DNA from: a virus
IMG/VR virus record: IMGVR_UViG_2754412344_000002
Span: 1,647 to 65,646 of that record
Length of the DNA: 64,000 bases
Reading direction: 5' to 3' (one strand)
The translations under genes and the position numbers were made by a program. Of the stretch, positions 24,214-42,111 are shown piece after piece. The notes beneath the pieces were generated by a model that saw only the letters and a list, made by a program, of their open reading frames with translations, was not told the DNA's origin and did not search any database. Every line of letters begins with the position of its first letter. Position 1 is the stretch's first letter.

Positions 24214-24290
24214 GGCACCTCCACATGTACCCAGCCCAGCGCAATGGGCTTACGCTGGACTGTCATACGAAAACACCAAGGGAGTTCGGC

Positions 24291-24860: not shown

Positions 24861-24866
24861 TTGGTC

Positions 24867-25079: not shown

Positions 25080-25297
25080 TGCTCCGGTCAAACGGTGGTC
25101 TCCGCACACGATCCCCCGACGTGTGACGGTTTGGGCGATGTTCGCATCGCTCTTTTTTACAGCAAGCTGGCTGGCGTAACGCGGGTCGGCAACGTGGTTC
25201 ATAAATAAGGCGTCCTTAGTGACGCCTCAATATTTGACCAAGATCAACCGGTGATTCAACTGATTAACCGATTGATTTTTCTAAAAAGGTGAAAGAA

Positions 25298-25642: not shown

Positions 25643-25706
25643 TGGATGCGCTAATTGATCTTTGGGTACGGATTTTCATTTCAGCCATCTATGGGTGGAG
25701 GTGGAT

Positions 25707-25883
25707 GTGAGCGCCGATACCGACAAAGAGCGTGAGGCCCGGATTGATCGTCTGGGGGCCGAGATGGTTATGGCTAATTCGCCGGCAGAGCGACAGCGGA
25801 TTTGGCTTGATCTGAAAAGGGAGATTTCGGGCCGCTCGCAGGCCCAGGTACAGCGGATGGAGCGCCAGAAGGGGCTGAGATGA
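25707..25883 (+). CDS. Small hypothetical protein
   Basis: GTG start after GGAGG; 58 aa. Confidence 0.55.
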   Translation: MSADTDKEREARIDRLGAEMVMANSPAERQRIWLDLKREISGRSQAQVQRMERQKGLR

Positions 25884-25996
25884 ACGCGTGCAAAACCTGC
25901 CTGAAACAGACCCTCATGTGGCTCGTGAATCATCACCTTGTCGGCGAATCTCTCATCGACTGGGCGTTCAAGAAATTCGATCTGAAGGGGCATTGA

Positions 25997-26662: not shown

Positions 26663-26664
26663 AC

Positions 26665-28446
26665 ATGAGCAACTGGAACGAAGTAAGCGAACGACTTGCG
26701 CAGGAGGCGGAGGCCATCGCCGGGATGCTGCTCCCGAACGGCAAGCGCGCCGGCCCGGAATGGGTCGCAGGCAGTGTCAACGGTGAGGCTGGCGATTCGC
26801 TTAAGGTGCGCCTGACGGGCAACAAGGCTGGCGTGTGGAAGGACTTTGCCGCAGGAAACGGCGGCGATCTCATCGATCTTTGGGCGGCAACGCGCGGCTT
26901 ATCGCTCAAGCAGGCATTCGAGGCCGCACGCGAATACCTTGGCATCAGCGAGCCGAAATTCGCCAATGATCTTCGGCGCACCTATTCCAAGCCCGCGAAG
27001 CCGCCCGTGACGAAGCCGGTTGGTAAGGTGCTGTCGTATCTGACAGAAGTTCGCAAGCTGTCGATCGAAACGATTCAGGCATTCAAGGTCGGCGCATCGA
27101 AGGAAGACGACGCGATAATTTTCCCGTTCCTGCGCGATGATGGCCTGGTAAATGTCAAACATCTGGCGCTTGAGCGCGATGCGAATGGAAAGAAAAAGAC
27201 TTGGCAGGCGTCTGGCGCAGAGCCCTGTCTATTTGGCTGGCATCTGATTCCGGACGACGTGAAGGCAGTTCTGATCGTTGAAGGCGAACTCGACGCAATG
27301 AGTCTTCATCAGTACGGATTCGACGCCCTGTCAATTAATCAAGGCGCCGGCAATCATCAGTGGATCGATCAAGATTTCGAGCGTCTTGAGCGATTCCAAG
27401 AGATCTTCCTCTGGTTCGACAACGATGAGGCAGGCAAGAAGGGCGTCGCAGAAGTCGCCGCTCGGCTCGGCCTTGATCGTTGCCGGATCGTATCATTCCG
27501 TTTGAAGGACGCGAACGAGGCGTTGCAGCGAGGTGTAGATCAAGAAGAGATTATTGAGGCAATCGCCGCAGCACAACGCATTGAGCCGTCCGACCTGAAG
27601 ACACCGGCATCGTATCTCGATGGTGTCATGGAGATGTTCAACGGGACACCGCTGGGCCACACCGGTGCTCCGCTGCCGTGGCCGGCATGGTCGGAACGTG
27701 TACGCCTGCGCCCTTCTGAGCTGTCGATCTGGACTGGTATTAATGGTCATGGCAAAAGCGATTTGCTCGGCAACGTTCTGATCAACTTGGTACAGAACAA
27801 GCAAAGGATTTGCATCTTCTCCGGAGAAATCAAGCCGACGATGCTGCTGTACCGGATGACCGTGCAAGCGTGCGCCACGAACAAGGCGACGCGTCCATTC
27901 ATCAAAGCAGCCAACGAATGGATGACGGGCTCTATTTGGATTTATGACCATGTGGGCAGTATCGACCAAACAAAATTGCTGGATGCATTCAAGTACGCCG
28001 CCAAGCGTTATCGCGTCACTCACTTCGTCATCGACTCTTTGATGAAGTGCGGAATCGCCGAAGATGACTACAAAGGGCAGAAGCAATTTATCGATGCGCT
28101 TTGCGATTTCAAGAATGATTTCAACGTTCATGTGCATTTGATCGCTCACGCTCGCAAGGGGGAGTCCGAGGAAAAGGCCCCCGGTAAATTGGACATTAAG
28201 GGTACCGGCGCGATTTCCGACCTTGCCGACAACGTGTTCACGGTCTGGCGTAACAAGCGAAAGGAGATGGATAAGGAGCCGAACAAAGACGACGAAGACG
28301 CGCGACTTTATTGTCACAAGCAACGCGCGACTGGCTACGAAGGCGCTCTTCGGCTCTGGTTCCACAAGGACTCGCTGATCTTCACGCAGAGCAATGAATG
28401 GCATCCTAGGCCTGCGTTTCAATTCACGACCAGAGAGGCTGCATGA
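26665..28446 (+). CDS. Toprim primase-SF4 helicase fusion
   Basis: LIVEGELDAMS and WFDNDEAG toprim; Walker A GINGHGKS; FVIDSLMK; HLIAHARK. Confidence 0.9.
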   Translation: MSNWNEVSERLAQEAEAIAGMLLPNGKRAGPEWVAGSVNGEAGDSLKVRLTGNKAGVWKDFAAGNGGDLIDLWAATRGLSLKQAFEAAREYLGISEPKFANDLRRTYSKPAKPPVTKPVGKVLSYLTEVRKLSIETIQAFKVGASKEDDAIIFPFLRDDGLVNVKHLALERDANGKKKTWQASGAEPCLFGWHLIPDDVKAVLIVEGELDAMSLHQYGFDALSINQGAGNHQWIDQDFERLERFQEIFLWFDNDEAGKKGVAEVAARLGLDRCRIVSFRLKDANEALQRGVDQEEIIEAIAAAQRIEPSDLKTPASYLDGVMEMFNGTPLGHTGAPLPWPAWSERVRLRPSELSIWTGINGHGKSDLLGNVLINLVQNKQRICIFSGEIKPTMLLYRMTVQACATNKATRPFIKAANEWMTGSIWIYDHVGSIDQTKLLDAFKYAAKRYRVTHFVIDSLMKCGIAEDDYKGQKQFIDALCDFKNDFNVHVHLIAHARKGESEEKAPGKLDIKGTGAISDLADNVFTVWRNKRKEMDKEPNKDDEDARLYCHKQRATGYEGALRLWFHKDSLIFTQSNEWHPRPAFQFTTREAA

Positions 28447-28657
28447 CTGAGCGCCAATGCCGCACATGTCGACACGCGACCAAAGATCCCGGCAACGAAT
28501 CGCACTATCGGGTCGGCTTGAGGAACTGCAAGCGTCGCCCAGTCTGGATGTTTGTCGTTGGCGGCCAGACATGCGATAGATGGGCGGCGAAGTAATGAGG
28601 GTTGACTTTTTGCAGCGGTCCACGCGACTAACTAAGCAGTACTTATGGAGTGAGAGA

Positions 28658-28972
28658 TTGAGACGAGCCGCACGCGCAGACGGAAACCAAGCCGATATTG
28701 TTGTCGGCCTTCGCCAGATCGGTGCCAGCGTCACGCCGCTTCACATGGTCGGCAGCGGGTGTCCTGACCTAGCGGTCGGATACAAAGGGCGAACCGTGTT
28801 ATTCGAGGTGAAAGACCCGAAGCAGCCGCCTAGCAAGCGCCGCCTTACAGATGACGAGGCGATCTGGTTTGGAAATTGGCGCGGCGAGGCATACGTAATC
28901 GAGACGCTAGAGCAAGCGATTGAGTACTTGATGAAGAAGGAGGTGTGTGATGGCAGCAAGCAAGAAGCGTAA
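28658..28972 (+). CDS. VRR-NUC-like PD-(D/E)XK nuclease
   Basis: ARADGNQADIV..LR..GASV, GCPDLAVG, FEVKD; start uncertain (ORF track 28580). Confidence 0.8.
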   Translation: MRRAARADGNQADIVVGLRQIGASVTPLHMVGSGCPDLAVGYKGRTVLFEVKDPKQPPSKRRLTDDEAIWFGNWRGEAYVIETLEQAIEYLMKKEVCDGSKQEA

Positions 28973-29447
28973 GGGAGCGAAAAAGTACGACGCAGGCCGC
29001 TGGCTTGCTCGCACCGTATCACGCGCAGAGTGCCGGCGTGACGCACATCCTCTTAAGGACGACCAGCAGCGCGACCTCGCCCTCTGCTACCACATCTCCT
29101 TCGAGAACATGCTTAAGCGCGGCAACGAGGAAGATTGGTATGTGCTCGCGAGCGCAATGAACGTCACACTCGTTCTCGCAGAGCAAGGATATGGCGAGGA
29201 ATACATCCCCGATATCAAGCGCGCGATGGAGTCGCTGATGGATGTGAAGTACCGCGCTGATCGCACGGGGCATTGGGCCTTCGATGGTCCCGGCATCCAG
29301 CGTATGCGTATCGCCATCGAGTTGCACGACCAGCAGTGCGCACTTGCCAATCGCGGGGAGATCAAGAAAGCGCTCAAGGTGATTGTGGAACGCGCGAACG
29401 CGGGGCATATGTATGCCGCTGAGCAATGTCAATTGGAGGCAGCATGA
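28950..29447 (+). CDS. Conserved phage hypothetical protein
   Basis: 165 aa, GGAGG RBS. Confidence 0.75.
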   Translation: MAASKKRKGAKKYDAGRWLARTVSRAECRRDAHPLKDDQQRDLALCYHISFENMLKRGNEEDWYVLASAMNVTLVLAEQGYGEEYIPDIKRAMESLMDVKYRADRTGHWAFDGPGIQRMRIAIELHDQQCALANRGEIKKALKVIVERANAGHMYAAEQCQLEAA

Positions 29448-30016
29448 AATCGACCTTTACTCCGGAACAAAGTGCGCTTGTTGCAAAGATCTGGGTCTCA
29501 GGAGGCAGCATCAAGCCTTATCTAACCCAACTTGGAAATCGTCCTTACTCGACGGTCGTAAGTCATGCGCTGTATGCGCTCAATCTCGGACCGCGGCCCA
29601 AGTCGGATCGCGGACTTAAGGAATATGCATGGGGCGAGATCGAGAAAGAGTTGAAGCGCGGCCCCGGCACTGTTCCAGAGATTGCCGCTCGAATCGGCTT
29701 CACATGGTCCACCGTCAACAAACGGTTATGTCCCGCCAATGCTGGCGAATCTGGGATCGTGCACATCATCGATTGGCGTCGTCGTTCCAACGGCGGCAAG
29801 CCGGTTCCAGTCTATGCGATTGGGCCGGGGACGAATGCACCGATTCCCGCACCTCTCACCGCTTCAGAGAAATGTCGCCGCGCACGCGCTATCAAGAAGT
29901 CGAAGCAAAACCCATGGGCGGCCGCAATTGGGCAGATCAAGGCTCCCGAGGGTGCGAAAGGGACAGTTTATAAGCACCTTGTCGATTACGAACAAGATGA
30001 ACTGGAGGAAGCATGA
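29444..30016 (+). CDS. Phage protein with wHTH-like region
   Basis: PGTVPEIAARIGFTWSTVNKRL; ATGA coupling. Confidence 0.7.
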   Translation: MKSTFTPEQSALVAKIWVSGGSIKPYLTQLGNRPYSTVVSHALYALNLGPRPKSDRGLKEYAWGEIEKELKRGPGTVPEIAARIGFTWSTVNKRLCPANAGESGIVHIIDWRRRSNGGKPVPVYAIGPGTNAPIPAPLTASEKCRRARAIKKSKQNPWAAAIGQIKAPEGAKGTVYKHLVDYEQDELEEA

Positions 30017-30387
30017 AGAAAGTTCTATTTGTGGCCGCATGTCTTTCGGCATTAGCTGGATGTAACGATGCCGACGTAGCATCGCGCAATCTGTCCCAAG
30101 CTGCCGATAACTTCCAAGTCAATTGCCGCATCGTGTTTTACAACGGGATCACCGGAGACTACATGCTGTCGATCGAGGGCCTCTGCTCTCTCGGTAACAA
30201 CGACAAAGCACGCGAGCTATCGGTGACGTGCAAGACTGGCCCGAGCAGCTATAAGAAGCACTTTCTCGGTCTGTCGGACAACGTGACGTACTTTGTGGAA
30301 CAGGTAGATGGCGCAGATGTGAGCACGTATCACTACAAGGTCGTGTTCAAGCCGTCTGTCATCGTGCCGGATATCCAGATCAAATAA
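30013..30387 (+). CDS. Phage lipoprotein
   Basis: Lipobox LAGC; DADVASRNLS.AADNF...IVFYNGITGDYML. Confidence 0.85.
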   Translation: MKKVLFVAACLSALAGCNDADVASRNLSQAADNFQVNCRIVFYNGITGDYMLSIEGLCSLGNNDKARELSVTCKTGPSSYKKHFLGLSDNVTYFVEQVDGADVSTYHYKVVFKPSVIVPDIQIK

Positions 30388-30398
30388 AGGAGGAAGCG

Positions 30399-30617
30399 AT
30401 GGCAATGGATTGGTATAACCCTGGTACCGACCAATACTGGTCAATCCAACAAATGCAACAGCGTGAGATTGAGTGGCAGAAACAGGAGGAACAGATCCGC
30501 CATCAATTCGCAATACTTCAGGCGCAACAGCAATACCGATCAAGCATTAAAGCGCCCAAAGTAATCGTCTCTATCCCTACTAATGAGCATTTGCTCGTAC
30601 TTCTTTGCGAGGAGTAA
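30399..30617 (+). CDS. Gln-rich hypothetical protein
   Basis: 72 aa, GGAGG RBS. Confidence 0.65.
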   Translation: MAMDWYNPGTDQYWSIQQMQQREIEWQKQEEQIRHQFAILQAQQQYRSSIKAPKVIVSIPTNEHLLVLLCEE

Positions 30618-30619
30618 CC

Positions 30620-30907
30620 ATGAAACTCAAGCCCTATAAGGAACTGATCGCTTTGTCCAAAGAAAAGCTTGATGCCGCGCTGGCTCCCGTCCGCGCACGT
30701 CAGGTCAAGACTCAGGCCGAGCTTGAGGTGGCGAAGATCGATGAACAACTGATCTCGACAGAGGCAAAGATTCAGGAACTCTGCGCGCAGAAGTCGATTG
30801 ATTTTCCTGCCCTGCTAAAACTGATGGATGAGCATGCGCTCGCGGAACGCCGCAAGAAGCAATACGACCAGATCCTGCGCGAACTGTTTCCCTCTTCCGA
30901 CGACTGA
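30620..30907 (+). CDS. Coiled-coil hypothetical protein
   Basis: MKLKPYKEL..., GAGGAG RBS. Confidence 0.7.
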   Translation: MKLKPYKELIALSKEKLDAALAPVRARQVKTQAELEVAKIDEQLISTEAKIQELCAQKSIDFPALLKLMDEHALAERRKKQYDQILRELFPSSDD

Positions 30908-30977
30908 GTATGCAATCCCGTCGAGTGTCGATGATCGAGGCCAAAACTAGTGCCGGTATAAATATGGAGAATTCTAT

Positions 30978-31658
30978 ATGAATCAACCATGCAAAATATC
31001 GTCGAAAGATAGGAGTCGGAAGGTTATTGATATAGCGGGGAAGAAATTCGGTCGACTGCTGGTTGTATCAATGGCCGGAATGAATTCGCAGCGCACTATG
31101 CTTTGGAATTGCGTTTGCGATTGTGGAAATAATGCCATGGTAGCGGGAACTAAGTTGCGCTCGGGTCATACTGTGAGTTGCGGTTGTGCCCAACGGGACG
31201 CTACACGTTTATCCAATACCACGCATGGAATGCGCCGCATGCCCGAATACAACGCCTGGAGGTCAATGAAAAGCAGGTGCTACAAAAAAACAAATTCCGC
31301 ATATCATAACTACGGTGGCCGCGGAATAGAAGTATGTGAAAGGTGGCGTGAATCATTCGAAAATTTCATAAGCGACATGGGCAGGCGACCGTCAGCCTTT
31401 CATTCCATTGACCGAATAAATAATAATGGGAATTACGAGCCCGGAAATTGCCATTGGTCTACCGGGGTAGCTCAAGGAAATAATAAGCGCAACAACCGTC
31501 GATTAGAGGTCGACGGGAGAAACATGACGATCGCGGAATGGGCGAGAGAGAGGTCGATTCCATATATCACGCTTATCCAGCGCGTTTCACGGTACGGATG
31601 GAGCGCGCAGCAGGCTTTAGGATTTGAGCCGCCTCCGAGCAGAAAAATTCCGAGATGA
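30978..31658 (+). CDS. HNH-type homing-endonuclease-like protein
   Basis: GKKFGRL, WNCVCDCG, SCGC, YGGRGIEVCERW, SIDRINNNGNYEPGNC.W...Q.NN; AT-rich. Confidence 0.85.
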   Translation: MNQPCKISSKDRSRKVIDIAGKKFGRLLVVSMAGMNSQRTMLWNCVCDCGNNAMVAGTKLRSGHTVSCGCAQRDATRLSNTTHGMRRMPEYNAWRSMKSRCYKKTNSAYHNYGGRGIEVCERWRESFENFISDMGRRPSAFHSIDRINNNGNYEPGNCHWSTGVAQGNNKRNNRRLEVDGRNMTIAEWARERSIPYITLIQRVSRYGWSAQQALGFEPPPSRKIPR

Positions 31659-31761
31659 ATCTTGCTTACCGATTTATCTCCCGCATGACTTGGCGGCTTG
31701 GGCACGTGAAAGGCATGAAAGAGCCATCGGAGACCGCATGACACCCCTTATCGGAGCAAAC

Positions 31762-31941
31762 ATGAACACAGCCGAACTGGTAGTCCGTATCAGCAATGCC
31801 ACGCACGAAGTAGCCGAAGCATCTGCCAAGGGCTTTCTCAATAATCCGAAGGCCGTAGCCATGGTAACGGAGTTGACGGACATGGCAGAGAAGCTGGAAG
31901 AAATGGCACTGGCCGAATGTGTTGGCCGGAAGATTGCATAG
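31762..31941 (+). CDS. Small hypothetical protein
   Basis: MNTAELVVRI..., GGAG RBS. Confidence 0.5.
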   Translation: MNTAELVVRISNATHEVAEASAKGFLNNPKAVAMVTELTDMAEKLEEMALAECVGRKIA

Positions 31942-32044
31942 CACGGGACTCTGAAATGAAAACTGTCTTCGCCTACTTCTGTCTTGCGGTGATATCGCTG
32001 CTCTGGCTGTCTACCGGTTGCGCGTTGATTGAACGGTTAATGCG

Positions 32045-32356
32045 ATGACTGCGCGAGTGATCGGGTTCCCGAAGCAAAAGACGTTTCGCAGCGAGAAGTT
32101 GCGGCGCGCTGTTGCCGCCCTTCCCTGTATGGACTGCGGACGCGAGGGGCAGACGCAAGCGGCACATTCCAACCAAGGTAAAGGTCTAGCAATCAAGGCA
32201 AGCGACGCGCGGCTGATGGCACTTTGCGTAACGTGTCACTCGAAGCTAGACCAAGGCGGCGTCTTCACGAAAGACGAACGACGCCGATACGAAGATGAGA
32301 TGGTCGCGCGAACTCTTGTCGCGCTGATCGAGAACGGGAAATTGGAGGTGGCATGA
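32045..32356 (+). CDS. DUF968/DUF1364-like Zn-binding nuclease-fold protein
   Basis: VAALPCMDCG...AAH...GKG...KASD...ALC..CH. Confidence 0.75.
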   Translation: MTARVIGFPKQKTFRSEKLRRAVAALPCMDCGREGQTQAAHSNQGKGLAIKASDARLMALCVTCHSKLDQGGVFTKDERRRYEDEMVARTLVALIENGKLEVA

Positions 32357-33078
32357 AGAACTTCTTCGTGCGGCGTTACGCCAAAAACGAAGCCGGTCGG
32401 GACTTCTGTGTGGGCGATATTCACGGCTGCTTTTCGAGACTTGAAGCCGCACTCGCAGCGCTCGGCTTTGACGAATCGCGCGACCGGTTGTTCTCGGTCG
32501 GCGATCTTGTTGATCGCGGGCCCGAGTCTGAGCGGGTACTCGAATGGCTCGACAAGCCGTGGTTTCACCCGGTGCAAGGCAATCATGAGGACATGGCGAT
32601 TCAGTTCACGCACGGGACTCGTGATCCGGACCACTATCTGATGAACGGCGGATCGTGGCTGATCTGCAAGTTGCCACAGGAACAGTTCCCATTCGCGGAT
32701 GCACTTGTCGCGCTGCCCTATGCGATCGAGGTGGAAACGGATGGCGGCCTCGTCGGCATCGTGCATGCAGATGTATCGGGCGGCGCTTGGGGCGGCATGG
32801 TCGAAAGTTTCGCGCAAGTGACGAGCAAGAACAAGCTGCGTACCATCACGGACACTTGTCTTTGGAAGCGCGATCGCATCGAAAGCGAAGATCGTTCTGG
32901 CGTCCCCGATGTGCGCGCCGTCATCGTCGGTCATACACCGATCAAGCGTCCTGTCGTACTCGGAAACGTCTATCACATCGACACTGCCGGCTGGACAGGC
33001 ACTGGACATTTCACGTTCATCGAACTCGCAACGCTGGAAATGTATCCGGCCGCGCCTGAGAAACTGGAGTGGGCATGA
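32353..33078 (+). CDS. NinI/PphA-like metallophosphoesterase (Ser/Thr phosphatase)
   Basis: VGDIHG, VGDLVDRGP, QGNHE, IVHAD, VGHTP, IDT motifs. Confidence 0.92.
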   Translation: MKNFFVRRYAKNEAGRDFCVGDIHGCFSRLEAALAALGFDESRDRLFSVGDLVDRGPESERVLEWLDKPWFHPVQGNHEDMAIQFTHGTRDPDHYLMNGGSWLICKLPQEQFPFADALVALPYAIEVETDGGLVGIVHADVSGGAWGGMVESFAQVTSKNKLRTITDTCLWKRDRIESEDRSGVPDVRAVIVGHTPIKRPVVLGNVYHIDTAGWTGTGHFTFIELATLEMYPAAPEKLEWA

Positions 33079-33229
33079 CGAACACCATCGAATTCCGCCG
33101 CTGGAACAGCCGCAGGAAGATCGTATTCTGCTTCTGGGAAGATGGCGAGCTGAAGATGTTCAAAGATCCTGAGACGGCAACGAAATGGGCCGAGCGTCAG
33201 GGGTTCAAGGCTACATTTGTGGAGGGGTG

Positions 33230-33667
33230 ATGAGCGGAGTGATGAACACGATTAGGCAGCTTACGGGGCGGCTTGCCCTTCTCCGTTCAGAGCGCGAGCG
33301 CTACCAAGCATTATGCGCTGCCGCATACCAGCTTGCCGGTGCCGTGAACGCGCCGGTTCGCTTCCTTGACGCGTTCGCGGATGCTGCAAACGGAGAGATC
33401 GAAGCGCGACAAAAGACGGACGACTTGTTGCCGGTCGATCCGGCGGAGGCGGGAGCGTTTCCGGCGTGGTCGGATACGGAGATGGGAAAATGGAAACGCA
33501 ATTCTGAGCGCCTTGAATATCTATGCAGAGAAGGCGCTTATGTGGAAAAAACCGGTTATGGGTGGTATGTCGTCAAGCGCCACAATGGGGAAGACGACTT
33601 TGAAAGCCTTTCGGCCGTTTGTGAGACCGCGCAAGATGCGATTGATGACGCGATGGAGAGGAAATGA
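33230..33667 (+). CDS. Phage hypothetical protein
   Basis: 145 aa, GGAGG RBS. Confidence 0.65.
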   Translation: MSGVMNTIRQLTGRLALLRSERERYQALCAAAYQLAGAVNAPVRFLDAFADAANGEIEARQKTDDLLPVDPAEAGAFPAWSDTEMGKWKRNSERLEYLCREGAYVEKTGYGWYVVKRHNGEDDFESLSAVCETAQDAIDDAMERK

Positions 33668-33873
33668 AATTCTGCAAAGACTGCATCTACTACACGCCAG
33701 CGTTTGTGGGGAGCAAAGTCTATGTACCTTCCCAATGCAGAGCAAACTTTGGTGAAAAGCAATTCGATCCAGTAACAGGGAACGAGATTCACTTCCAAGG
33801 CGATCCATACGAATTGCGTAAAAATGAAGAGAAATGCGGCATAATTGCTAATTGGTTCGAACCCAAAGAATAA
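33664..33873 (+). CDS. Cys-rich hypothetical protein
   Basis: CKDC...C...CG..ANWFE. Confidence 0.7.
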   Translation: MKFCKDCIYYTPAFVGSKVYVPSQCRANFGEKQFDPVTGNEIHFQGDPYELRKNEEKCGIIANWFEPKE

Positions 33874-33912
33874 GACTCAAAGCTCGGGGTAACGCAATGC
33901 ATGAGGTAAGGC

Positions 33913-34161
33913 ATGCGCTACGCATCCGAAGTCATCGATCTTTTGTCGGCTCATCCGGGCCGACCATTCAAGAAGCAACTCATCGTCAACCACGTAGCCG
34001 AACATCACCGCAAGGATAAGCGCATCCTTCGCGTTGGCGTTTGGCGCGTTCTCAAGATGCTCGAAGCATCCCAGCAGATCGAAGTGATGGACAAGGGGCA
34101 GTCGCATCACTACGTCTGGATCGCGAAAACTATAACATTATGTTCTGGACAATATCGCTAA
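33913..34161 (+). CDS. Small wHTH-like protein
   Basis: MRYASEVIDLLSAHPGRPF...VWRVL..L..S. Confidence 0.6.
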   Translation: MRYASEVIDLLSAHPGRPFKKQLIVNHVAEHHRKDKRILRVGVWRVLKMLEASQQIEVMDKGQSHHYVWIAKTITLCSGQYR

Positions 34162-34200
34162 GCTTGGTACGCTTATATAAATTGTGTAGGCGTACTGATC

Positions 34201-34416
34201 ATGGCGACAAGACGGACAAAGAAGGTAGTTGAAGAACCGACGAACACATGCAAGTTCTGTCGGCATTGTCACGTCTTGCCGGAAGGGTTCGCACTCTGTC
34301 GTCGCTTTCCGCCAGTCGTCGTCTACGACATTGACGATCACGACATCTTCAGCACTTTTCCTGTAACACCACTGGATTCTTCTTGCGGGGAGTTTTCGGT
34401 GATTCTGAATTCCTAG
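34201..34416 (+). CDS. Cys-rich hypothetical protein
   Basis: CKFCRHC...CRRFPP...FP......CGEF. Confidence 0.7.
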   Translation: MATRRTKKVVEEPTNTCKFCRHCHVLPEGFALCRRFPPVVVYDIDDHDIFSTFPVTPLDSSCGEFSVILNS

Positions 34417-34419
34417 GCC

Positions 34420-35583
34420 ATGGACGACAAACTGAAGGAATTCGCTACTGATCGCCAAAGAGAAATCCTAGAGGCGATTGAACGATGCGGCTCGCAACGG
34501 GCTGCTGCCGAAGCGCTCGGCATCTCGCCCGGCACCGTGTCAAACACGGTCGCCGTTGTCGAGAGGAAGGCTGCGCGGTCTGGATACAGTCCGGTTCACG
34601 ATTTCACGCACATTGTGCCGCCGGGATTCCTCGCGGATGGAATTTCCACATACTACAACGAGGAAGGTAAGCCGACTGCGCAATGGGTGAAGGCTCGCGC
34701 GGATAAGTCGCAACAAGAGGAATTGATCCGCGAGATTGTTCGCACAATGACAGAAAGCGTTCGAGGCATGTCGACGCTAGTCGATCCGCCCTGCTTTGCG
34801 AATGCTGACTTGCTCGCCGTCTATCCGTTTGGCGACCCGCACGTAGGGCTGTATGTATGGGCCAAAGAGTGCGGGGACGACTTTGATTTGGAGATTGGCC
34901 GCAAGCTAACGATGGGCGCCGTCGATCGCGTTGTGGCTAGTGCCCCAGCCGCTGAGACGGCAATCCTATTGCTGCTCGGCGACGTATTCCACGCAGATGA
35001 CAGCACTAACAGGACGCCACTGCACCAGCACCCGCTTGATGTGGACTCGCGCTATGTGAAGGTCTTGCAGGTCGGCATCGAGACGTATCGATACGCAATC
35101 ATTCGCGCCCTCGAAAAGCATCAAACGGTGGTAGTCAAGGCCATTCCGGGAAATCACGATCCGCACGCCATTTGGGCGCTCGCGTTCACCTTGTCGGCGT
35201 ACTTTGCAAACAATCCGCGCGTCGAGGTAGATCTGAGCCCTGCGAAACACTGGTACTTCCGCTTCGGGAACGTGCTGATCGGCGCAACCCATGGGGATAC
35301 GGTAAAGCATGAAAAGCTCGGCGGCATGATGGCATGCGATCGCGCGCAGGACTGGGGTGAAACGCAATACCGCTACTGGTACACGGGCCATATCCACTCC
35401 AAGATGGTGACGGAACTCCCCGGGGTCGTCTGCGAATCGTTTCGCACGCTTGCTGCTCAGGATGCATATGCGGCGGGGCATGGCTACCGCGCAGGCCGAG
35501 ACATGATGTGCATCGTCCATCACCGCAAATTCGGCGAGATCGAGCGTCACCGTGCCGACATTGGGATGCTGGAGGCAGCATGA
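34420..35583 (+). CDS. HTH + calcineurin-like phosphoesterase
   Basis: N-terminal SQRAAAEALGISPGTVS; GDPH, GDVFH, PGNHD, HGD, GHIH motifs. Confidence 0.85.
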   Translation: MDDKLKEFATDRQREILEAIERCGSQRAAAEALGISPGTVSNTVAVVERKAARSGYSPVHDFTHIVPPGFLADGISTYYNEEGKPTAQWVKARADKSQQEELIREIVRTMTESVRGMSTLVDPPCFANADLLAVYPFGDPHVGLYVWAKECGDDFDLEIGRKLTMGAVDRVVASAPAAETAILLLLGDVFHADDSTNRTPLHQHPLDVDSRYVKVLQVGIETYRYAIIRALEKHQTVVVKAIPGNHDPHAIWALAFTLSAYFANNPRVEVDLSPAKHWYFRFGNVLIGATHGDTVKHEKLGGMMACDRAQDWGETQYRYWYTGHIHSKMVTELPGVVCESFRTLAAQDAYAAGHGYRAGRDMMCIVHHRKFGEIERHRADIGMLEAA

Positions 35584-35906
35584 CTCCCCGCAAGCACAAA
35601 CTCACCCCGTCGCCCGAGGCGCTGCGCGATTTCCTCAAGACGCGCCGTCCTTACACCCTCCCCGAGCTGATGATGACGTTCGCTGGTGGCGAGGAAGAAG
35701 TTCAGTTCGCGCTATTCACGGCGCAGCAGTTGGGATGGATCAGCTACTTCCCGCCTGGTCGGAAGCGCTGCGCTCGCTGGGCGTACAACGATCAGTCGGA
35801 TAACTCAGTTGCTGGTCCGCGCATCTCCCCTCTTTCGACGAGCACGGATTTCAAGTACGACCTGTATTCACACGCCAATCTCACAAAGGGGTTCCGGAGG
35901 CAGTAG
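35580..35906 (+). CDS. Hypothetical protein, possible wHTH
   Basis: 108 aa coupled to upstream stop. Confidence 0.6.
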   Translation: MTPRKHKLTPSPEALRDFLKTRRPYTLPELMMTFAGGEEEVQFALFTAQQLGWISYFPPGRKRCARWAYNDQSDNSVAGPRISPLSTSTDFKYDLYSHANLTKGFRRQ

Positions 35907-35930
35907 TTGCGCGATTTCACTATGGGCCTA
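35906..35930 (+). promoter_or_regulatory. Shared upstream motif, copy 1 (candidate late promoter/activator site)
   Basis: GTTGC-N4-TTTCACTATGGGCCTA, also at 42892-42916. Confidence 0.55.
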
Positions 35931-35983
35931 CGATAGACGTAGAAACCGCCATTCTGGCGGCGCTCACTCATTTGGAGTACAGA

Positions 35984-36151
35984 ATGGCGATCAAGGATGG
36001 CGGCAACATGAAGGAAGCGACCGAGTGCGTGCACCACGCACGTACCGGTAAGGCTGGCACGTACAAGGCCGAGCCGCCGAAGGGGCCGAAGCCCGAGCCG
36101 GTTCGCACGAACGGCATCAAAGCTCCGAAAGAGCGCGGCGTGAGCAAGTAA
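35984..36151 (+). CDS. Small basic protein (55 aa)
   Basis: MAIKDGGNMKE..., GGAG RBS, stop overlaps next ATG. Confidence 0.6.
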   Translation: MAIKDGGNMKEATECVHHARTGKAGTYKAEPPKGPKPEPVRTNGIKAPKERGVSK

Positions 36152-36339
36152 TGGCCGAGAAGAAGTGGATCGCAGGCGCGATCAACCCGAAGCATAAGGG
36201 CGCCCTTCGCAAAGAACTGGGCGTCAAGAAAGGCGAGAAAATCCCCGAGAAAAAGCTTGAGGCGGCTGCGAAGAAGCCCGGCAAGGAAGGTCAACGTGCT
36301 CGGCTCGCTGAAACCCTGAAAGGGATGAAAAAGAAATGA
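36151..36339 (+). CDS. Small Lys-rich phage protein
   Basis: KWI.GAI..K.GAL...LGV..GEKIP..KL..AA...G..G.RARLA.TL. Confidence 0.8.
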   Translation: MAEKKWIAGAINPKHKGALRKELGVKKGEKIPEKKLEAAAKKPGKEGQRARLAETLKGMKKK

Positions 36340-36572
36340 GCGACGTACAAGCGCAAGATACCCCGAGTGTGGTCGATCAGGTCGTCGCGACGATGGCCGA
36401 TGTTGGCGAAGTCGTGGCTGCTGTTGTTGGCCCGACCGCGCCGTTTGCTGCGGAAGTGACGGCTGCAACACTTCTGCTTCGTGCGGTCAACGAGATCAAG
36501 AAAGTCGGCCGTGGGCTGTCGCCGGAGATGGAATCGGTACTGGCTGACGCACAGAAGTTTCTCGGGCTGTAA
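36336..36572 (+). CDS. Hypothetical protein
   Basis: 78 aa coupled to upstream gene. Confidence 0.65.
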   Translation: MSDVQAQDTPSVVDQVVATMADVGEVVAAVVGPTAPFAAEVTAATLLLRAVNEIKKVGRGLSPEMESVLADAQKFLGL

Positions 36573-36809
36573 TCGTATTTGAGCGGGAACGTGGCGACAC
36601 TGCAATAGGCGAATTACGCTGTTTCGTTGCCGAGCAGTTACCAATCCGGATGGCGACAGAGGCATGGGCGGTGTCCCTCTCTGTTTGCCTGCCGGGCTCA
36701 CATGTAGACGCTTTGGATGCTGCTGGGCGTGACCAGTGGCTTCAGTCGGACGACACTAGAGCGTCTTCACGTGGGCGTGGAAATCGCATCCCGCGAAAGT
36801 ACTTCCGCC

Positions 36810-36895
36810 CGAATCTTGGGTGCGCGATGTTTGCGCCGTATGCCACACGAAACGTGGCGCTTTCAAGTGTGCAGTTCGAATCTGCTGGCTCGCCG
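36810..36895 (+). ncRNA. Degenerate tRNA-like element
   Basis: D arm GCGC-GATGTTT-GCGC, hairpin GCCAC-ACGAAAC-GTGGC, T arm GCAG-TTCGAAT-CTGC; acceptor poorly paired, no CCA. Confidence 0.45.
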
Positions 36896-36964
36896 ACCCT
36901 AGGAGGCGCATGGGAGATGGAATTCCCTGGCGTGGCGAGTGAGTGGGCTACGGCCCGCACACTT

Positions 36965-37050
36965 GAGAGCGAATGCGCAGGCTGATGCGCTCCCAGGGGT
37001 ATATTTCTTGGGTCTCCTATGCCAGAGATCAGCACTGGCCGCTCTCACCA
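36965..37050 (+). ncRNA. Non-canonical tRNA-like cloverleaf with encoded CCA
   Basis: Acceptor GAGAGCG/CGCTCTC + ACCA; D GCGC-AGGCTGAT-GCGC; CCCAGG/CTTGGG arm; GCCAG-AGATCAGCA-CTGGC in place of T arm. Confidence 0.7.
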
Positions 37051-37055
37051 AACAC

Positions 37056-37134
37056 CTGAGTGTAATGTCAGTCCGGTTAGACGGCCTGCTTTGGAAGCAG
37101 GAGGCCGAAGGTTCAAATCCTTCCACTCAGACCA
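37056..37134 (+). tRNA. tRNA-Pro (TGG)
   Basis: CTGAGTG/CACTCAG acceptor, CCTGC-TTTGGAA-GCAGG, GTTCAAATC T loop, ACCA. Confidence 0.9.
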
Positions 37135-37138
37135 TATT

Positions 37139-37212
37139 GCGGGCTTGGCCGATCGGTTAGGCCGTGGCCTTCCAAGCCATTCAGGCGAGTTCAATTCTCG
37201 CAGCCCGCTCCA
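37139..37212 (+). tRNA. tRNA-Gly (TCC)
   Basis: GCGGGCT/AGCCCGC acceptor, TGGC-CTTCCAA-GCCA, GTTCAATTC, TCCA end. Confidence 0.92.
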
Positions 37213-37268
37213 CGTACACCTGTACACATTCTATGTACAGGGAATAAAAAATGAACGCCGGAGATTAA

Positions 37269-37493
37269 GTGAAACGCAACGGCATTGAATACCGCATCCG
37301 CCGTAAAGCCGAATTGAGCGACTTTATGGGCGCTGATATCGACGCATTGGTGGAAGAAGAAGCGCGTCAAGCTCGCGCCCGGGTGGCGGCTGAGGTGATT
37401 GGATCATATGTAGCGCGATGCCGCGTATCCGCTGGGAATCTTGGCGAGATGGCGATTCAGGCGCGGGCGTTTGAGATTCGCAATCGCAGTTAA
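37269..37493 (+). CDS. Hypothetical protein
   Basis: 74 aa, GGAG RBS, GTG start. Confidence 0.55.
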   Translation: MKRNGIEYRIRRKAELSDFMGADIDALVEEEARQARARVAAEVIGSYVARCRVSAGNLGEMAIQARAFEIRNRS

Positions 37494-37508
37494 TAACCCA
37501 CGATAGAA

Positions 37509-37976
37509 ATGGCACGCGGTCGCATTTCCACCTACACCGAAAAGGCAGCAGAGGAGATTTGCCAGCGCATTGCTGACGGCGAACCGCTGCGCGTTATTTG
37601 CCGCGACGAGCATATGCCTGCATGGCGAACGGTCTATCAATGGATCGAGGATCACGCAGATTTTGCCGCACGCATCGCGCGCGCGAGAATTATGGGGCGC
37701 GAAGCGATTTTTGAGGACACGTTGATCATTGCTGACACGCCAGTTGACGGTGTGCGGCGTGAGATCAGCGAAACTGGCAAGAAAGAGGTGCACGAGGACA
37801 TGCTTGGGCACCGGAAGCTTCAGATCGAAACGCGGCTGAAATTGCTGGCTAAGTGGGATCCGAAGAAATACGGCGAAAAGCTTCACTCTGAAGTGACCGG
37901 CGCAGATGGCGCGCCGTTCGTGGTGCAGATTGTGCGGTTCGGAGATTCTGGTGGCGACAATACAGATTCCGAATAA
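37509..37976 (+). CDS. terS: Terminase small subunit
   Basis: EEICQRIADGEPLR.IC....MP..RTVY.W...RKLQIETR.KLLAKW.PKKYG. Confidence 0.85.
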   Translation: MARGRISTYTEKAAEEICQRIADGEPLRVICRDEHMPAWRTVYQWIEDHADFAARIARARIMGREAIFEDTLIIADTPVDGVRREISETGKKEVHEDMLGHRKLQIETRLKLLAKWDPKKYGEKLHSEVTGADGAPFVVQIVRFGDSGGDNTDSE

Positions 37977-39288
37977 CTGGCGCCCACGAGATTACCAGCG
38001 CGAGGCGTGGAGCTACTTGGAGCGCGGCGGCAAACACGCAGAAATCGTATGGCATCGCCGTTCGGGCAAGGATGAAGTCGGATTGCATTGGACGGCTGTA
38101 GCGTCGTTCCAGCGAGTCGGAACTTACTGGTACATGCTGCCGCTAGCCAACCAGGCGAAGAAAGCTATCTGGAATGCTGTCAATCCCCATACCGGCAAGA
38201 AGCGCATTGACGAGGCATTCCCGCCAGAGATCCGGCGTCGCAAGAACGATCAGGAAATGTACATCGAGTTCATCAACGGCTCGACGTGGCAGGTGGTTGG
38301 TTCCGACAACTTCAACGCGCTGGTTGGATCGCCCCCAATTGGTCTGGTGTATTCGGAATGGGCGCTTTCAAATCCGGCCGCAAAAGCATATCTGCGGCCG
38401 ATACTTGCGGAAAACGGCGGCTGGCAAATCTTCAACACCACCCCGCGTGGCAAGAACCATGCATACCGCACTTTGATGGCGGCGAAAGAAGATCCGAATG
38501 CGTTCGCTCAAGTGCTGACTGCCAAACAAACTGGTGTCATCACGGCCGAACAGTTGGACAAACTCTTGGCCGATTACATCAAGGATTACGGAGAAGCCCT
38601 TGGCACCGCCTACTTCGAGCAGGAATTCTTGTGCTCATTCGAGACGCCGATTATGGGCGCTGTATATGCAAAGGAACTCCGTGAAGCAGCAGACCGCATC
38701 CGGCCGGTTCCATACGATCCCAGCAAGCCGGTCCATATCTTCTGGGACTTGGGCCGCGCAGACAAAACGGCGATCTGGTTCGCACAGCTTGGTCCATTCG
38801 AATACCGGATCATTGATTATCACGAGGGTGTTGGGAAGCACATCGGCGAATACATCGTCGATTTGCAGGCAAAGAAATATGTCTACGGGGATTGCTGGCT
38901 GCCTCATGACGCGAACAACGAGCTTCTAGCCGCAGAGCGCACGGTGGCCCAGCAACTTCGGGCTGCCGGATTCAAGACTCGTACCGTCGCAAAGACTTCT
39001 ATCGATACACGCATCGAAGCAGCGCGACTAATGTTGCCGCTTACCTATTTCGATGAGCGTAAATGCGAGACTGGTTTAGACGCGCTTCGCAACTATCGCT
39101 ACCGAGTAGACGAAGAAACGAAGCAATTCAGCAAAGAGCCACTCCATGACTGGGCTTCCCATGCCGCGGACGCATTCGGGTACATGGCGATCGCCTTTAA
39201 GGAAGAAAAGCCGAAGAAGCGCGACTTTCAGACTATCCCGAAACGACAGTTCAACACTGGCCGCAATCTCGGCGGCAATTGGATGTGA
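37951..39288 (+). CDS. terL: Terminase large subunit
   Basis: HRRSGKD Walker A, LVYSEW Walker B, WDLGRAD and HDWASHAADAFGY nuclease motifs; GTG start. Confidence 0.92.
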   Translation: MATIQIPNNWRPRDYQREAWSYLERGGKHAEIVWHRRSGKDEVGLHWTAVASFQRVGTYWYMLPLANQAKKAIWNAVNPHTGKKRIDEAFPPEIRRRKNDQEMYIEFINGSTWQVVGSDNFNALVGSPPIGLVYSEWALSNPAAKAYLRPILAENGGWQIFNTTPRGKNHAYRTLMAAKEDPNAFAQVLTAKQTGVITAEQLDKLLADYIKDYGEALGTAYFEQEFLCSFETPIMGAVYAKELREAADRIRPVPYDPSKPVHIFWDLGRADKTAIWFAQLGPFEYRIIDYHEGVGKHIGEYIVDLQAKKYVYGDCWLPHDANNELLAAERTVAQQLRAAGFKTRTVAKTSIDTRIEAARLMLPLTYFDERKCETGLDALRNYRYRVDEETKQFSKEPLHDWASHAADAFGYMAIAFKEEKPKKRDFQTIPKRQFNTGRNLGGNWM

Positions 39289-39290
39289 GC

Positions 39291-39578
39291 ATGCGAATCG
39301 CTATTGATTACGACAATACCTACACCGCCGACGAATTCTTGTGGTACCACTTCATCACAATGGCGCAGATTGGCGGCCATTCCGTAGAGCTGGTGACTAT
39401 GCGCTATAAAACGCCGGTCGAGGAAATTCCGGAACACATTTGCCGACTCTTTGACAACGTTGAATATACCGAACGTAAATCAAAAAAGTCTCACATGGAT
39501 TCAATCGGACGGCCTGTCGATATCTGGATTGACGACATGCCTAACTTCATTATGCAAGACGCATGGGCGGGCGACTAA
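39291..39578 (+). CDS. Minimal HAD-superfamily phosphatase-like protein
   Basis: IAIDYDNT (DxDxT), VT.R, K, IWIDD. Confidence 0.75.
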   Translation: MRIAIDYDNTYTADEFLWYHFITMAQIGGHSVELVTMRYKTPVEEIPEHICRLFDNVEYTERKSKKSHMDSIGRPVDIWIDDMPNFIMQDAWAGD

Positions 39579-39850
39579 TGATTGACTGGAAACCAATTGG
39601 AACCATTCCACTCGCTCCAACCCGTAATGGACTAGACATGCGATCCCAAGATGTATTGCTGTGGGTTAAATCTGACTTTGGCTATTCAGGCCCTGTTGTC
39701 GGATATTTCTCAGTCAACGTATCAGTCGATGGCACGGTGTTTGAAAGTGTCTCGGTCAGCGGCGTAGGTGGTTGGGAATGTGAAGAAGATTTCGGTGCTT
39801 CCGATGTAACACATTGGGCCGAACTGCCAAAAGGCCCGGGTGAAGAATAA
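39578..39850 (+). CDS. DUF551-like protein
   Basis: WKPI.T.P...VLLW...VTHWAELP. Confidence 0.65.
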   Translation: MIDWKPIGTIPLAPTRNGLDMRSQDVLLWVKSDFGYSGPVVGYFSVNVSVDGTVFESVSVSGVGGWECEEDFGASDVTHWAELPKGPGEE

Positions 39851-42111
39851 TGGCTGAGCGCAAACAGGACATCATTAAGCGGGCCCACGATCGGTTTCGC
39901 TCGTGCATCGAATGGGAAGGCGACGCGCGGCAGCGGTTCAAGGACGACATTCGGTTCCTCTATGCTGATCCCGACAATCAAGAACAATGGAATGCGGCCG
40001 TTCGTGCTCAGCGTCAGCTAGCCGGTCAGCCGATGGTGACGATCAACAAAGTGCACACGCACTGGCTGCACGTCGTTAACCAAGGCAAAGAGAACAAGCC
40101 GCAGATCCGGATCAGCCCGACCGGCGACGAAGCTACCTACGAATCGGCGCAGATTTTCGAGCAGATTATCCGGCGCATCGAGTACATCTCGGACGCTCAG
40201 ACGGCCTATGACAAGGCCAGCGAGTTCCAGGTGGGCGGAGGGATCGGCTACTGGCGCATTGTCAGTCGTTACACCGACGACAACACGTTTGACCAAGAGC
40301 TGTACATCGACCAGATCCCCGACCCGCTGTCGGTCTACATGGACCCGAACATCAAGAAGCAGGACGGATCGGACGCGCGGTTTGCATTCATCTACGACGA
40401 CATGCCTCGGGATGAGGCACAGAAGAAGTACCCGAACATCGTCAAGCGCCAGAACCACGGCGATGACGCGCTGGAATGGTCGCGGCGGGATACGGTGCGT
40501 GTGGCTGAGTATTACGAGCGCTCCGAGTCGAAGGATTGGCTGTATGCGATCCCGCGTGACGATGGCGGCGTCATGTTGGTGCGCGAATCGAGCATGCCGG
40601 ACGACGCGCGAGACATGCTCAAGCAGGCACTAGATAACGGTTCGAACGTCCAGCGTCGCCGCATCCCCCGTTTTTCGGTCGACTGGTATCTCATCGTAGG
40701 CGACGAGATCGCCGAGAAGTCGGAATGGCTCGGCAAGTACATCCCGATCATTCGCGTTCCCGGTGAGGAGGTCATCATCGAGGGCCGTCTCGATCGTAAG
40801 GGAATGGTGCGTTATCTGAAGGACGCCCAGCGCGCCTTCAACTACAACGCATCGGCCGCGCTTGAATACGGCGCGCTGCAAAGCAAATCGCCCTACATCG
40901 CTCCGGTTGAGGCTATTGAAGGGCTGGAAAACTACTGGGCGACGGCGAACACGCAGAACCACGCGTATCTCCCGTACAACAATGCGGACGAGAGCGGCAA
41001 TCCTATTCCCCCGCCTACTCGCCAGCCTGCGCCTGGTTCGGCTCCCGTGTTCATGGATGGCATGCAAGCCGCGGAACACGAGATGATGATGGCGTCGGGT
41101 CAGTACGAGGCTACGTTCAGTGCTCAGGGTAACGAGGTCAGCGGCATCTCGATCGAGCAACGCCAAAAACAGGGCGAGCGCGTCACGTTCCACTTCCAGG
41201 ACAACCTCGCCAAGGCCATCAAGTTCACCGGCAAGCAGCTTATCGACCTGATCCCGAAGTATTACGACACGCGTCGTGTAATTCGGATCATGTCGGAATC
41301 CGGGGAGGAACAGCAGATCCAGATCGATCCGCAGGCCAAGCAAGCGCTGCAACAGCAGCAGGATGAGGGTGAATCCAAGGTCGCGGCGATCTTCAACCCG
41401 AATGTCGGGACGTACGAAGTCATGGCGTCGGTTGGGCCGAACTTCGAGACGCGCCGCAAGCAGGCTTTCGACGCGATGACGCAACTGCTGATGAACAACC
41501 CAGCACTGCCGAACGTCATTGGCGATCTGTACATGGGTTCGGCTGATTTCCCGACCGCCGACAAGCTGCAAGAGCGCATGCGCAACTGGATCAAGGCCAG
41601 CAATCCGGCCGTCCTCGGTGAAGTCGATCCGCAGGTTCAGCAGATGGAGCAGCAACTTCAGGCAGCGGCTCAGTTCATCAAAGAATTGCAGCAGCAGCTT
41701 CACGACAAGAGTGTCGAGCAACAGCTCCAGGCCAAGCGCGTCGATATTGACGCCCTGAACCATCTCGCCCTGCGCATGGAGAACGACAACGAGGCTATCC
41801 GCAAGGCGTTTGAGGCAGAGACGAACCGGCTCAAGGTCATGTGGCCTGCGATGGCGGCCGAAGCCATGGAGCCGCTCGTCCGCAAGATGCTGGCCGAGAT
41901 CATTCGCGCGCCGGCACCTGATGGCGGTGTGCAGCCTGATCCGGTCGATCCGGCAAACGCCTATGCCGCGGGCATTACCCAAGTCCTTCAACCCGTTCCG
42001 CAGATCGAGCAAGAGAAGTCACAGGGCGAACAGCAAGCCCATCAGCAGAGCATGAATCAAGCAGCGCAGCAGTTGGCGCAATCACAACAGCCCGCGACGA
42101 CGGGCCAGTAA
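39850..42111 (+). CDS. P22-like portal protein
   Basis: 753 aa; QW...R, TINKV, GGIGYW, IPIIRVPG, KDAQR.FNY, SGISI..RQ, Gln-rich barrel tail. Confidence 0.92.
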   Translation: MAERKQDIIKRAHDRFRSCIEWEGDARQRFKDDIRFLYADPDNQEQWNAAVRAQRQLAGQPMVTINKVHTHWLHVVNQGKENKPQIRISPTGDEATYESAQIFEQIIRRIEYISDAQTAYDKASEFQVGGGIGYWRIVSRYTDDNTFDQELYIDQIPDPLSVYMDPNIKKQDGSDARFAFIYDDMPRDEAQKKYPNIVKRQNHGDDALEWSRRDTVRVAEYYERSESKDWLYAIPRDDGGVMLVRESSMPDDARDMLKQALDNGSNVQRRRIPRFSVDWYLIVGDEIAEKSEWLGKYIPIIRVPGEEVIIEGRLDRKGMVRYLKDAQRAFNYNASAALEYGALQSKSPYIAPVEAIEGLENYWATANTQNHAYLPYNNADESGNPIPPPTRQPAPGSAPVFMDGMQAAEHEMMMASGQYEATFSAQGNEVSGISIEQRQKQGERVTFHFQDNLAKAIKFTGKQLIDLIPKYYDTRRVIRIMSESGEEQQIQIDPQAKQALQQQQDEGESKVAAIFNPNVGTYEVMASVGPNFETRRKQAFDAMTQLLMNNPALPNVIGDLYMGSADFPTADKLQERMRNWIKASNPAVLGEVDPQVQQMEQQLQAAAQFIKELQQQLHDKSVEQQLQAKRVDIDALNHLALRMENDNEAIRKAFEAETNRLKVMWPAMAAEAMEPLVRKMLAEIIRAPAPDGGVQPDPVDPANAYAAGITQVLQPVPQIEQEKSQGEQQAHQQSMNQAAQQLAQSQQPATTGQ

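Follow-up and report, generated by a model that had tools for sequence, protein, structure and literature searches.

A tRNA-shaped, non-decoding RNA beside the tRNA genes of a provirus is a minimal member of a widespread and apparently undescribed family of phage RNAs

The window analysed here is a stretch of 64,000 nucleotides from an IMG/VR provirus (positions 1,647 to 65,646 of record IMGVR_UViG_2754412344_000002). Within it lies an element of 86 bases (36965–37050, plus strand) that ends in an encoded CCA, has the outline of a tRNA and stands immediately upstream of two real tRNA genes, which raises the question of what such an RNA is: a tRNA in decay, a tRNA that decodes in an unusual way, or the product of a different kind of gene. 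The initial annotation, which proposed a selected tRNA-like RNA rather than random decay, had described a perfect acceptor stem, a discriminator A, a CCA end, a D-like arm and two odd 9-nt loops, and each of these features is confirmed base for base by the sequence.

The acceptor-like stem (P1) pairs GAGAGCG (36965–36971) with CGCTCTC (37040–37046) and can be extended by an optional eighth pair, T36964-A37047. A three-base junction, J1/2 (AAU, 36972–36974), whose DNA form AAT is found in 144 of 199 scan candidates, some of these false, leads into a D-like hairpin, H1 (GCGC-AGGCUGAU-GCGC, 36975–36990), in which the GCGC strands at 36975–36978 and 36987–36990 enclose the loop AGGCTGAT. The position of the anticodon arm is taken by CCCAGG-GGUAUAUUU-CUUGGG (36992–37012), a minimal, lineage-specific insert that we call the cargo arm; its stem (CCCAGG/CTTGGG) contains one G·U pair, and its loop is the 9-nt GGTATATTT. 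An 8-nt linker, UCUCCUAU (37013–37020), occupies the position of the variable loop. It is followed by a T-like hairpin, H3 (GCCAG-AGAUCAGCA-CUGGC, 37021–37039), in which GCCAG (37021–37025) and CTGGC (37035–37039) close the 9-nt loop AGATCAGCA (37026–37034), and which joins the 3′ strand of P1 with no spacer. A discriminator-like A and the encoded CCA (37047–37050, with CCA at 37048–37050) complete the element. Upstream, a hairpin (AGUGA-GUGGGC-UACG-GCCCGC-A-CACUU, 36937–36964, plus strand) abuts the first base of P1; the minimum free energy (MFE) of 36920–36964 is −18.4 kcal/mol.

The stems of this cloverleaf are those of a canonical tRNA (7-bp acceptor, 4-bp D stem, 5-bp T stem), and the loops are not. 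The T position carries the 9-nt AGAUCAGCA where a tRNA has the 7-nt UUCRANY loop and its elbow contacts with the GG of the D loop, and the anticodon position carries the 9-nt GGUAUAUUU where a tRNA has a 7-nt loop with U33 and a purine at position 37. Consistent with these non-canonical loops, ARAGORN, run on the window, called the element neither tRNA nor tmRNA, and a search of 36600–37300 against Rfam 15, including the tRNA family (RF00005), matched the element to no family even at E ≤ 10. The predicted MFE fold of 36964–37050 is a cloverleaf (−36.8 kcal/mol, z −2.5) that 4 of 200 shuffled sequences equal in stability, and the stability of this fold, taken alone, would be weak evidence for a functional RNA. 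It is homology that speaks decisively against chance: R1, a covariance model built for the family in this analysis, scores 80.9 bits on the element (E 1.3e-18). R1 finds no second copy in the window, where the next-best score is 13.7 bits.

The element heads a cassette that it shares with tRNA-Pro(UGG) (37056–37134, plus strand; Rfam 58.2 bits) and tRNA-Gly(UCC) (37139–37212, plus strand; Rfam 53.6 bits), both called by ARAGORN and both with an encoded CCA; the cassette lies between small early ORFs and the terS/terL/portal genes. The gap of 5 nt to tRNA-Pro that had been noted from the sequence is correct, and the spacer reads AACAC. Upstream of the cassette lies an ORF-poor, lineage-specific leader (36573–36936, plus strand; ~360–390 nt) that has no blastn similarity to ~330 family-bearing loci and no Rfam match at E ≤ 10 over 36600–37300; a T-arm-like string, GCAG-TTCGAAT-CTGC, is present in it near 36872–36890. 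Three viral contigs (L340, L341 and L342) whose terS is 69–76% identical lack the element and both tRNAs upstream of terS, so the cassette is an accessory module. Directly past tRNA-Gly is a perfect hairpin, CCTGTACA-N9-TGTACAGG (37219–37243, plus strand); an A-rich, not T-rich, run follows it, and it is no terminator in the plus orientation. Elsewhere in the window, a tRNA-His (7051–7126, minus strand) coincides with a drop in G+C from ~67% to ~55% and probably marks the prophage integration site and left boundary, and a weak Rfam tRNA match (23003–23063, minus strand; 32.2 bits, model positions 4–67), on which ARAGORN makes no call, may represent a tRNA in decay or the remnant of an att site within the prophage.

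Relatives of the element were first revealed by distant BLAST matches to a shared core, which was then followed by scans anchored on a 19-mer of H1 or on the H3 hairpin. In the BLAST matches, which come from the Burkholderia phages phi644-2, Bups phi1, E192a and PL1 as well as from Pseudomonas phages, the core lies in an unannotated gap every time. The exact 19-mer, AATGCGCAGGCTGATGCGC, occurs in more than 120 IMG/VR viral contigs among the matches listed and in the genomes of more than 120 species of gamma-, beta- and alphaproteobacteria, together with a few records or metagenome-assembled genomes (MAGs) of Desulfobacterota, Bdellovibrionota and Bacteroidota; the scan anchored on the H3 hairpin (GCCGGAGATCAGCRCCGGCC) yielded copies with a variant H1 among the matches listed. 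Family members are also found in Klebsiella phages and in the textbook phages P1 and HK620, and the copy of an enterobacterial relative matches 181 phage records and 1,056 of 5,426 complete E. coli genomes, or about one in five.

Every copy is built in the same order: P1, AAU, H1, a variable insert, H3 and the 3′ strand of P1. The length between the 7-bp P1 stems ranges from 70 to 227 nt (median 129), and the 82 nt of the window element is near the minimum, so that, by these comparisons, it is an ordinary minimal member, with cargo of the shortest form, of a family that is very widespread and unannotated. Rfam searches of the window and 16 loci, at gathering and E-value thresholds, returned only tRNAs, one Proteo-phage-1 RNA and an unrelated RT-15 RNA. 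The Proteo-phage-1 RNA (RF03044, 76.8 bits; locus L045, 3205–3282, minus strand) precedes a family member on its own strand by ~120 nt, an arrangement seen in one of 12 loci checked. No description of the family was found in full-text literature searches, which were also made with the conserved sequences, and a survey of 10,006 phage RNA candidates may include it (PMC10690425). With neither annotation nor an Rfam entry, the family is apparently undescribed.

Covariation supports the structure. In an alignment of 34 sequences (A1), two-sided changes occur in eight of nine P1 pairs and in six of the seven pairs equivalent to those of the window; the changed cells number 105, compared with 34.6 ± 4.2 in shuffled alignments, and 95% of P1 cells are paired, compared with 33–47% after sliding of the 3′ partners. 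Of the 34 sequences, 33 have G-C as the innermost pair of P1. H1 and H3 are nearly fixed in sequence, with compensatory forms of the H1 stem (GAGC/GCUC, GCGU/ACGC, GCGA/UCGC and GCAC/GUGC) and of the H3 stem (GCCAG/CUGGC; consensus GCCRG-AGAUCAGCA-CYGGC), and RNAalifold, run unguided, recovers P1, H1 and H3. The scaffold recognised by R1 consists of a 7-bp P1, a spacerless 5-bp H3 and a 4–5-bp H1, and the window element has each of the family's marks: a covarying P1 of at least 7 bp, the invariant closing G-C followed by AAU, an H1 of the form GCGC-AGGCUGAU-GCGC, and an H3 joined directly to the 3′ strand of P1.

The two conserved loops are complementary to each other over six bases. In the window, GCUGAU of loop 1 (AG-GCUGAU; segment 36981–36986) can pair with AUCAGC of loop 3 (AG-AUCAGC-A; segment 37028–37033). 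Because each scan was anchored on one of these loops, the pairing was assessed in extra copies from the same contigs that neither scan pattern had selected. Three of these carry compensatory loop 1/loop 3 changes, GGUGAU/AUCACC (L079), UGGUG/CACCA (L147) and UGAUGA/UCAUCA (L304), and a fourth, GCGA/UCGC (L201), has lost the middle pair on both sides by co-deletion; all four retain the P1, junction and H3 of the family. Frequent single changes in the loops (AUCAGU, AUUAGC) produce G·U pairs, and non-family candidates from the same scan have at most 2–4 complementary loop bases. Four independent compensatory variants indicate that loop–loop pairing is under selection, and on this comparative evidence a Watson–Crick kiss of five to six pairs stands in for the elbow that the D loop and T loop form in a tRNA.

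Whether the kiss forms within one molecule is a separate matter. In two contigs (L079 and L147), the extra copies lie beside canonical ones and have orthogonal loop pairs, each matched inside its own unit, a pattern that would fit an intramolecular kiss or homo-oligomers alike; covariation cannot separate the two. The loops have the layout of the kissing loop of the HIV-1 dimerization initiation site (DIS), two purines, six paired bases and one A, which usually stacks its hairpins end to end. As stacking of this type, with a J1/2 of 3 nt, would be hard to close in one molecule, a tRNA-like L-shape cannot be taken for granted, and pairing may take place between molecules.

The arm in the anticodon position behaves quite differently from the scaffold. 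Cargo in the family runs from ~20 to more than 200 nt, and judged from the sequences this position is a hypervariable slot with unrelated inserts in different phages. In two loci the cargo includes a whole nested tRNA (L112, ~7008–7200, plus strand; L201, 522–745, plus strand, the latter a tRNA-Pro(CGG)). The cargo hairpin of the window has no match in any other family locus compared. Its complements within the window number five, compared with 1.96 expected, and the sole exact match is the hairpin itself; an antisense target within the window was rejected, the complements being at about chance level. Elsewhere, the cargo of locus L010 (~3700–3790, minus strand) contains a hammerhead-like string, CUGAUGA-GGCC..GGCC-GAAAC, in a locus with no Rfam match at the gathering threshold.

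Taken together, these comparisons identify the element as a real conserved phage RNA gene, tRNA-shaped and, as far as its sequence can tell, unable to read codons. Invariant loops on covarying stems, the pattern that the initial annotation had named as the one to look for, are what the family presents: AGATCAGCA and GCGCAGGCTGATGCGC are nearly invariant across hundreds of phages, and the closing stem covaries. Its reading of a selected tRNA-like RNA rather than random decay stands, with homologues in hundreds of phages that keep the loops and vary the stems; what it overlooked is the complementarity of the two loops, the hypervariable cargo slot in the supposed anticodon arm and the size of the family.

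The genomic surroundings of the family are diverse. A tRNA lies within 500 nt or nested in the element in 26 of 138 copies, none of these tRNAs being on the opposite strand, and in eight copies, the window included, a tRNA starts 4–9 nt past P1; about 80% of copies do not adjoin a tRNA. Terminator-like hairpins occur within 120 nt downstream of 26 of 137 copies (15 of these within 12 nt) and in the 120 nt upstream of 12 of 134, and the 45 nt upstream are unusually stable in 30% of copies, compared with 15% in a control region. Immediately 3′ of P1, NCCA is present in 28 of 186 unique members, with about three expected by chance, and CCA lies within five positions 3′ of P1 in 62 of 186, compared with 14 of 186 in a control window. 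CCA is thus enriched 4- to 9-fold at this site and encoded in only ~15–33% of members.

Individual placements include the region between pR′/qut and the late terminator tR′ in HK620, a late leader with terminators on both sides (L105), a position downstream of cI in an Stx2a phage and, in P1, the C1-controlled ban operon (69816–69923), after a dicF-like region and tRNA-Asn/Thr and not in immI. Tandem copies occur in the P1-like RCS47, in Klebsiella phage Magnus (two copies) and in several viral contigs. In P1 (NC_005856, 69472–70041; locus L338, 873–1442), plp and upl are annotated on the strand opposite one strong copy, and in RCS47 (locus L128, 2506–3326) the plp/upl ORFs face two strong copies, with a possible third; what is annotated as ORFs may be an RNA array. 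In phi644-2 and E192a (L002, 1160–1880; L003, 1170–1880), the element is inside a ~650-nt non-coding region, conserved in both phages, that lies behind a strong promoter-like TTGACA..TATAAT next to cI/cro-type genes; this region may be a larger structured RNA.

The neighbouring proteins also vary (exonuclease, sigma factor, holin, primase, terminase), and none travels with the element, so a partner would be host-encoded or the RNA would act alone. H1, H3 and the loops are almost the same in different bacterial classes and have no phage protein as partner, which likewise suggests a conserved partner in the host or a function of the RNA only, such as self-assembly.

How the element might be made is suggested by its acceptor end. 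RNase P of the E. coli type uses a coaxial acceptor/T stack, U(−1), a G(+1)-C pair, a discriminator A and CCA, and all of the features of such a substrate are present in the window sequence: P1 and H3 are joined without a spacer (7 + 5 bp) and give a 12-bp stack, U(−1) is U36964, G(+1) is G36965, and an A73-like A precedes the CCA to give an RCCA end. The cassette would be transcribed as a single precursor, which RNase P would cut 5′ of G36965 and 5′ of tRNA-Pro; 3′ exonucleases would remove the AACAC trailer as far as the encoded ACCA. The predicted product is a stable RNA of ~86 nt that would draw on the host machinery for tRNA maturation and stability and remain outside decoding. It might act through its invariant scaffold, by binding or titrating a conserved host factor or by self-association of the loops, through its cargo, or through both. 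Variants related to the L105 copy are present in assembled RNA-library contigs of 339 nt (depth 14) and 2,079 nt (depth 260), contigs that are uninformative on ends and processing; in the latter, an unmatched extension carries an H3-like sequence. A search of RNA data sets for 36575–37260 of the window gave no match.

We propose, with moderate confidence, that the element is a functional RNA gene whose product is a processed, stable, non-decoding mimic of tRNA. Homology and covariation, loop compensation, membership of tRNA arrays, tandem copies, nested tRNAs, the lack of a fixed protein neighbour, the RNase P determinants of the window element, the accessory nature of the cassette and the enrichment of CCA together make a non-decoding gene product the reading that we consider, on balance, probable. 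Several observations weigh against a tRNA mimic: the upstream hairpin (36937–36964) lies directly against the presumed RNase P site, an unusual arrangement in a pre-tRNA leader; CCA is missing from most copies; ~80% have no tRNA neighbour; some are followed by terminator-like hairpins or lie in operon leaders; and the DIS-like layout of the loops leaves the L-shape in doubt.

It is also conceivable, if rather unlikely, that the element acts in cis as a leader or processing element, a form of punctuation or an insulator whose role is to direct cleavage, shield the 3′ end of the upstream RNA or modify downstream transcription. The promoter-proximal leader positions in HK620 (pR′-qut to tR′), L105, the Stx2a phage and the P1 ban operon favour this, the HK620 and Stx2a placements in particular being ones that would suit a cis-acting leader element, as do the 26 of 137 copies with a terminator-like hairpin close downstream. 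However, the distance to a gene or terminator is not fixed, tandem copies and membership of tRNA arrays suit a gene product better, HK620 already has Q/qut, and H1 and H3 are more nearly identical across proteobacterial classes (and in a few MAGs of other phyla) than an insulator needs. Nor is the element the HK022 put RNA (putL/putR), since R1 has no match in HK022 24000–40751 (best score 13.2 bits), a stretch that takes in both the early and the late regulatory regions.

Self-assembly is a comparably minor prospect. Here the complementary loops would pair head to tail to give dimers or rings, in the manner of phi29 pRNA or of the kissing-loop assemblies of ROOL and GOLLD, and the likeness to tRNA would be secondary. 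The loop layout shared with the HIV-1 DIS (RR, six nucleotides and A) favours coaxial intermolecular kissing, and the extra copies in L079 and L147 have orthogonal loop pairs matched per unit. The family also resembles ROOL and GOLLD in its presence in phage tRNA arrays and in the occasional nested tRNA (PMC12990946). Against this, the loop covariation fits intramolecular and homo-oligomeric pairing equally, and the element is far smaller than known cage-forming RNAs. Both the cis-acting and the self-assembling alternatives partly overlap with a processed, non-decoding tRNA mimic as the main reading.

Aminoacylation of a CCA-ended RNA by a host synthetase, which would make the element a decoy or a non-translational aminoacyl donor, is improbable. 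The window element does have a 7-bp stem, A and CCA, and CCA is enriched across the family; however, CCA is not encoded in most members, so the family as a whole cannot work by charging, and P1 has no fixed identity pair and no G3:U70 (its third pair is U-A, G-C or A-U), while the T-loop and anticodon are absent. A decaying tRNA pseudogene or an odd decoding tRNA, such as a frameshift suppressor with a 9-nt anticodon loop, might be suggested by the cloverleaf shape, the two adjoining tRNAs and the 9-nt loop, but this is already contradicted by the family data and is very improbable, as the "odd" loops hardly change in hundreds of homologues whose stems covary, the arm in the anticodon position varies without limit in length and sequence, and no tRNA model scores the element.

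Several consequences follow for the annotation of phage genomes and for the view of tRNA-like folds. The family is conserved nearly base for base across phages of alpha-, beta- and gammaproteobacteria, yet it is unannotated and has no Rfam family; plp and upl of P1 may be mis-called genes, given the RNA on the other strand. A tRNA-like outline can apparently be held by a base-paired kiss instead of the D-loop/T-loop elbow, and the anticodon arm can serve as a slot for cargo.

Among known RNAs, the nearest in kind are rnaC (species 1) and rnaD (species 2) of phage T4, non-decoding small stable RNAs inside a phage tRNA cluster (NC_000866 annotation), of which rnaC has a tRNA-type arm at its end. 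They were rejected as homologues: the best R1 score in the T4 cluster is 7.9 bits, no match, and there is no homology of sequence or structure. Whereas rnaC keeps a canonical T arm (CCGGGUUCGAAUCCCGG), the family has a Watson–Crick kiss in place of the T- and D-loop contacts. The tRNA-like domain of tmRNA shares the topology of the element (5′ acceptor, D analogue, large insert, T arm, 3′ acceptor and NCCA); in contrast, the element lacks G3:U70, the UUCRA T-loop and a tag frame, and its cargo is a 21-nt hairpin.

Small structured RNAs from or in phage operon leaders offer a second comparison, among them the antisense RNAs P1 c4 and P4 CI (Rfam C4) and the HK022 put RNA. Both P1 c4 and P4 CI are RNase P substrates. 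The element differs in having no C4 match even at E ≤ 10, and the P1 copy is in the ban operon, not in immI. R1 finds nothing in phi80, whose M3 RNA is an oop homologue, and has no match in P22, the published sRNAs P22E and P22G (PMC13397905) included, the resemblance of P22G being partial only. The pRNA of phi29 also has two mutually complementary loops, which it pairs between molecules; the element, in contrast, matches nothing in Rfam, its family is not tied to packaging genes, and it occurs in P1 and HK620, phages whose packaging is not known to need an RNA.

The covariance models of ROOL, GOLLD, phi29 pRNA and C4 in Rfam were all rejected as matches to the element. ROOL and GOLLD are associated with phages and prophages, occur in tRNA arrays, sometimes with an embedded tRNA, and have kissing loops (PMC12990946). 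The family resembles them in its tRNA arrays, in its embedded tRNAs (as in some GOLLD) and in its kissing loops, and differs in size, at ~70–230 nt compared with 500–800 nt, and in having no Rfam match where they have Rfam families. In the engineered tRNA scaffold of Ponchon and Dardel, the anticodon arm is swapped for an arbitrary RNA and the tRNA body gives folding, processing and stability (PMC3753655). The element likewise has an unrelated RNA in the place of the anticodon arm; unlike the engineered scaffold, it belongs to a natural family and uses a base-paired kiss as its elbow. As a bolder and decidedly doubtful extension, the family might be a universal RNA chassis of proteobacterial phages, with a tRNA outline for maturation and stabilisation by the host, a programmable six-base kiss that possibly forms dimers or rings, and interchangeable cargo that includes whole tRNAs. 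It would then be a small proteobacterial analogue of ROOL and GOLLD, as well as a naturally occurring tRNA scaffold, and would play a part in phage–host conflict.
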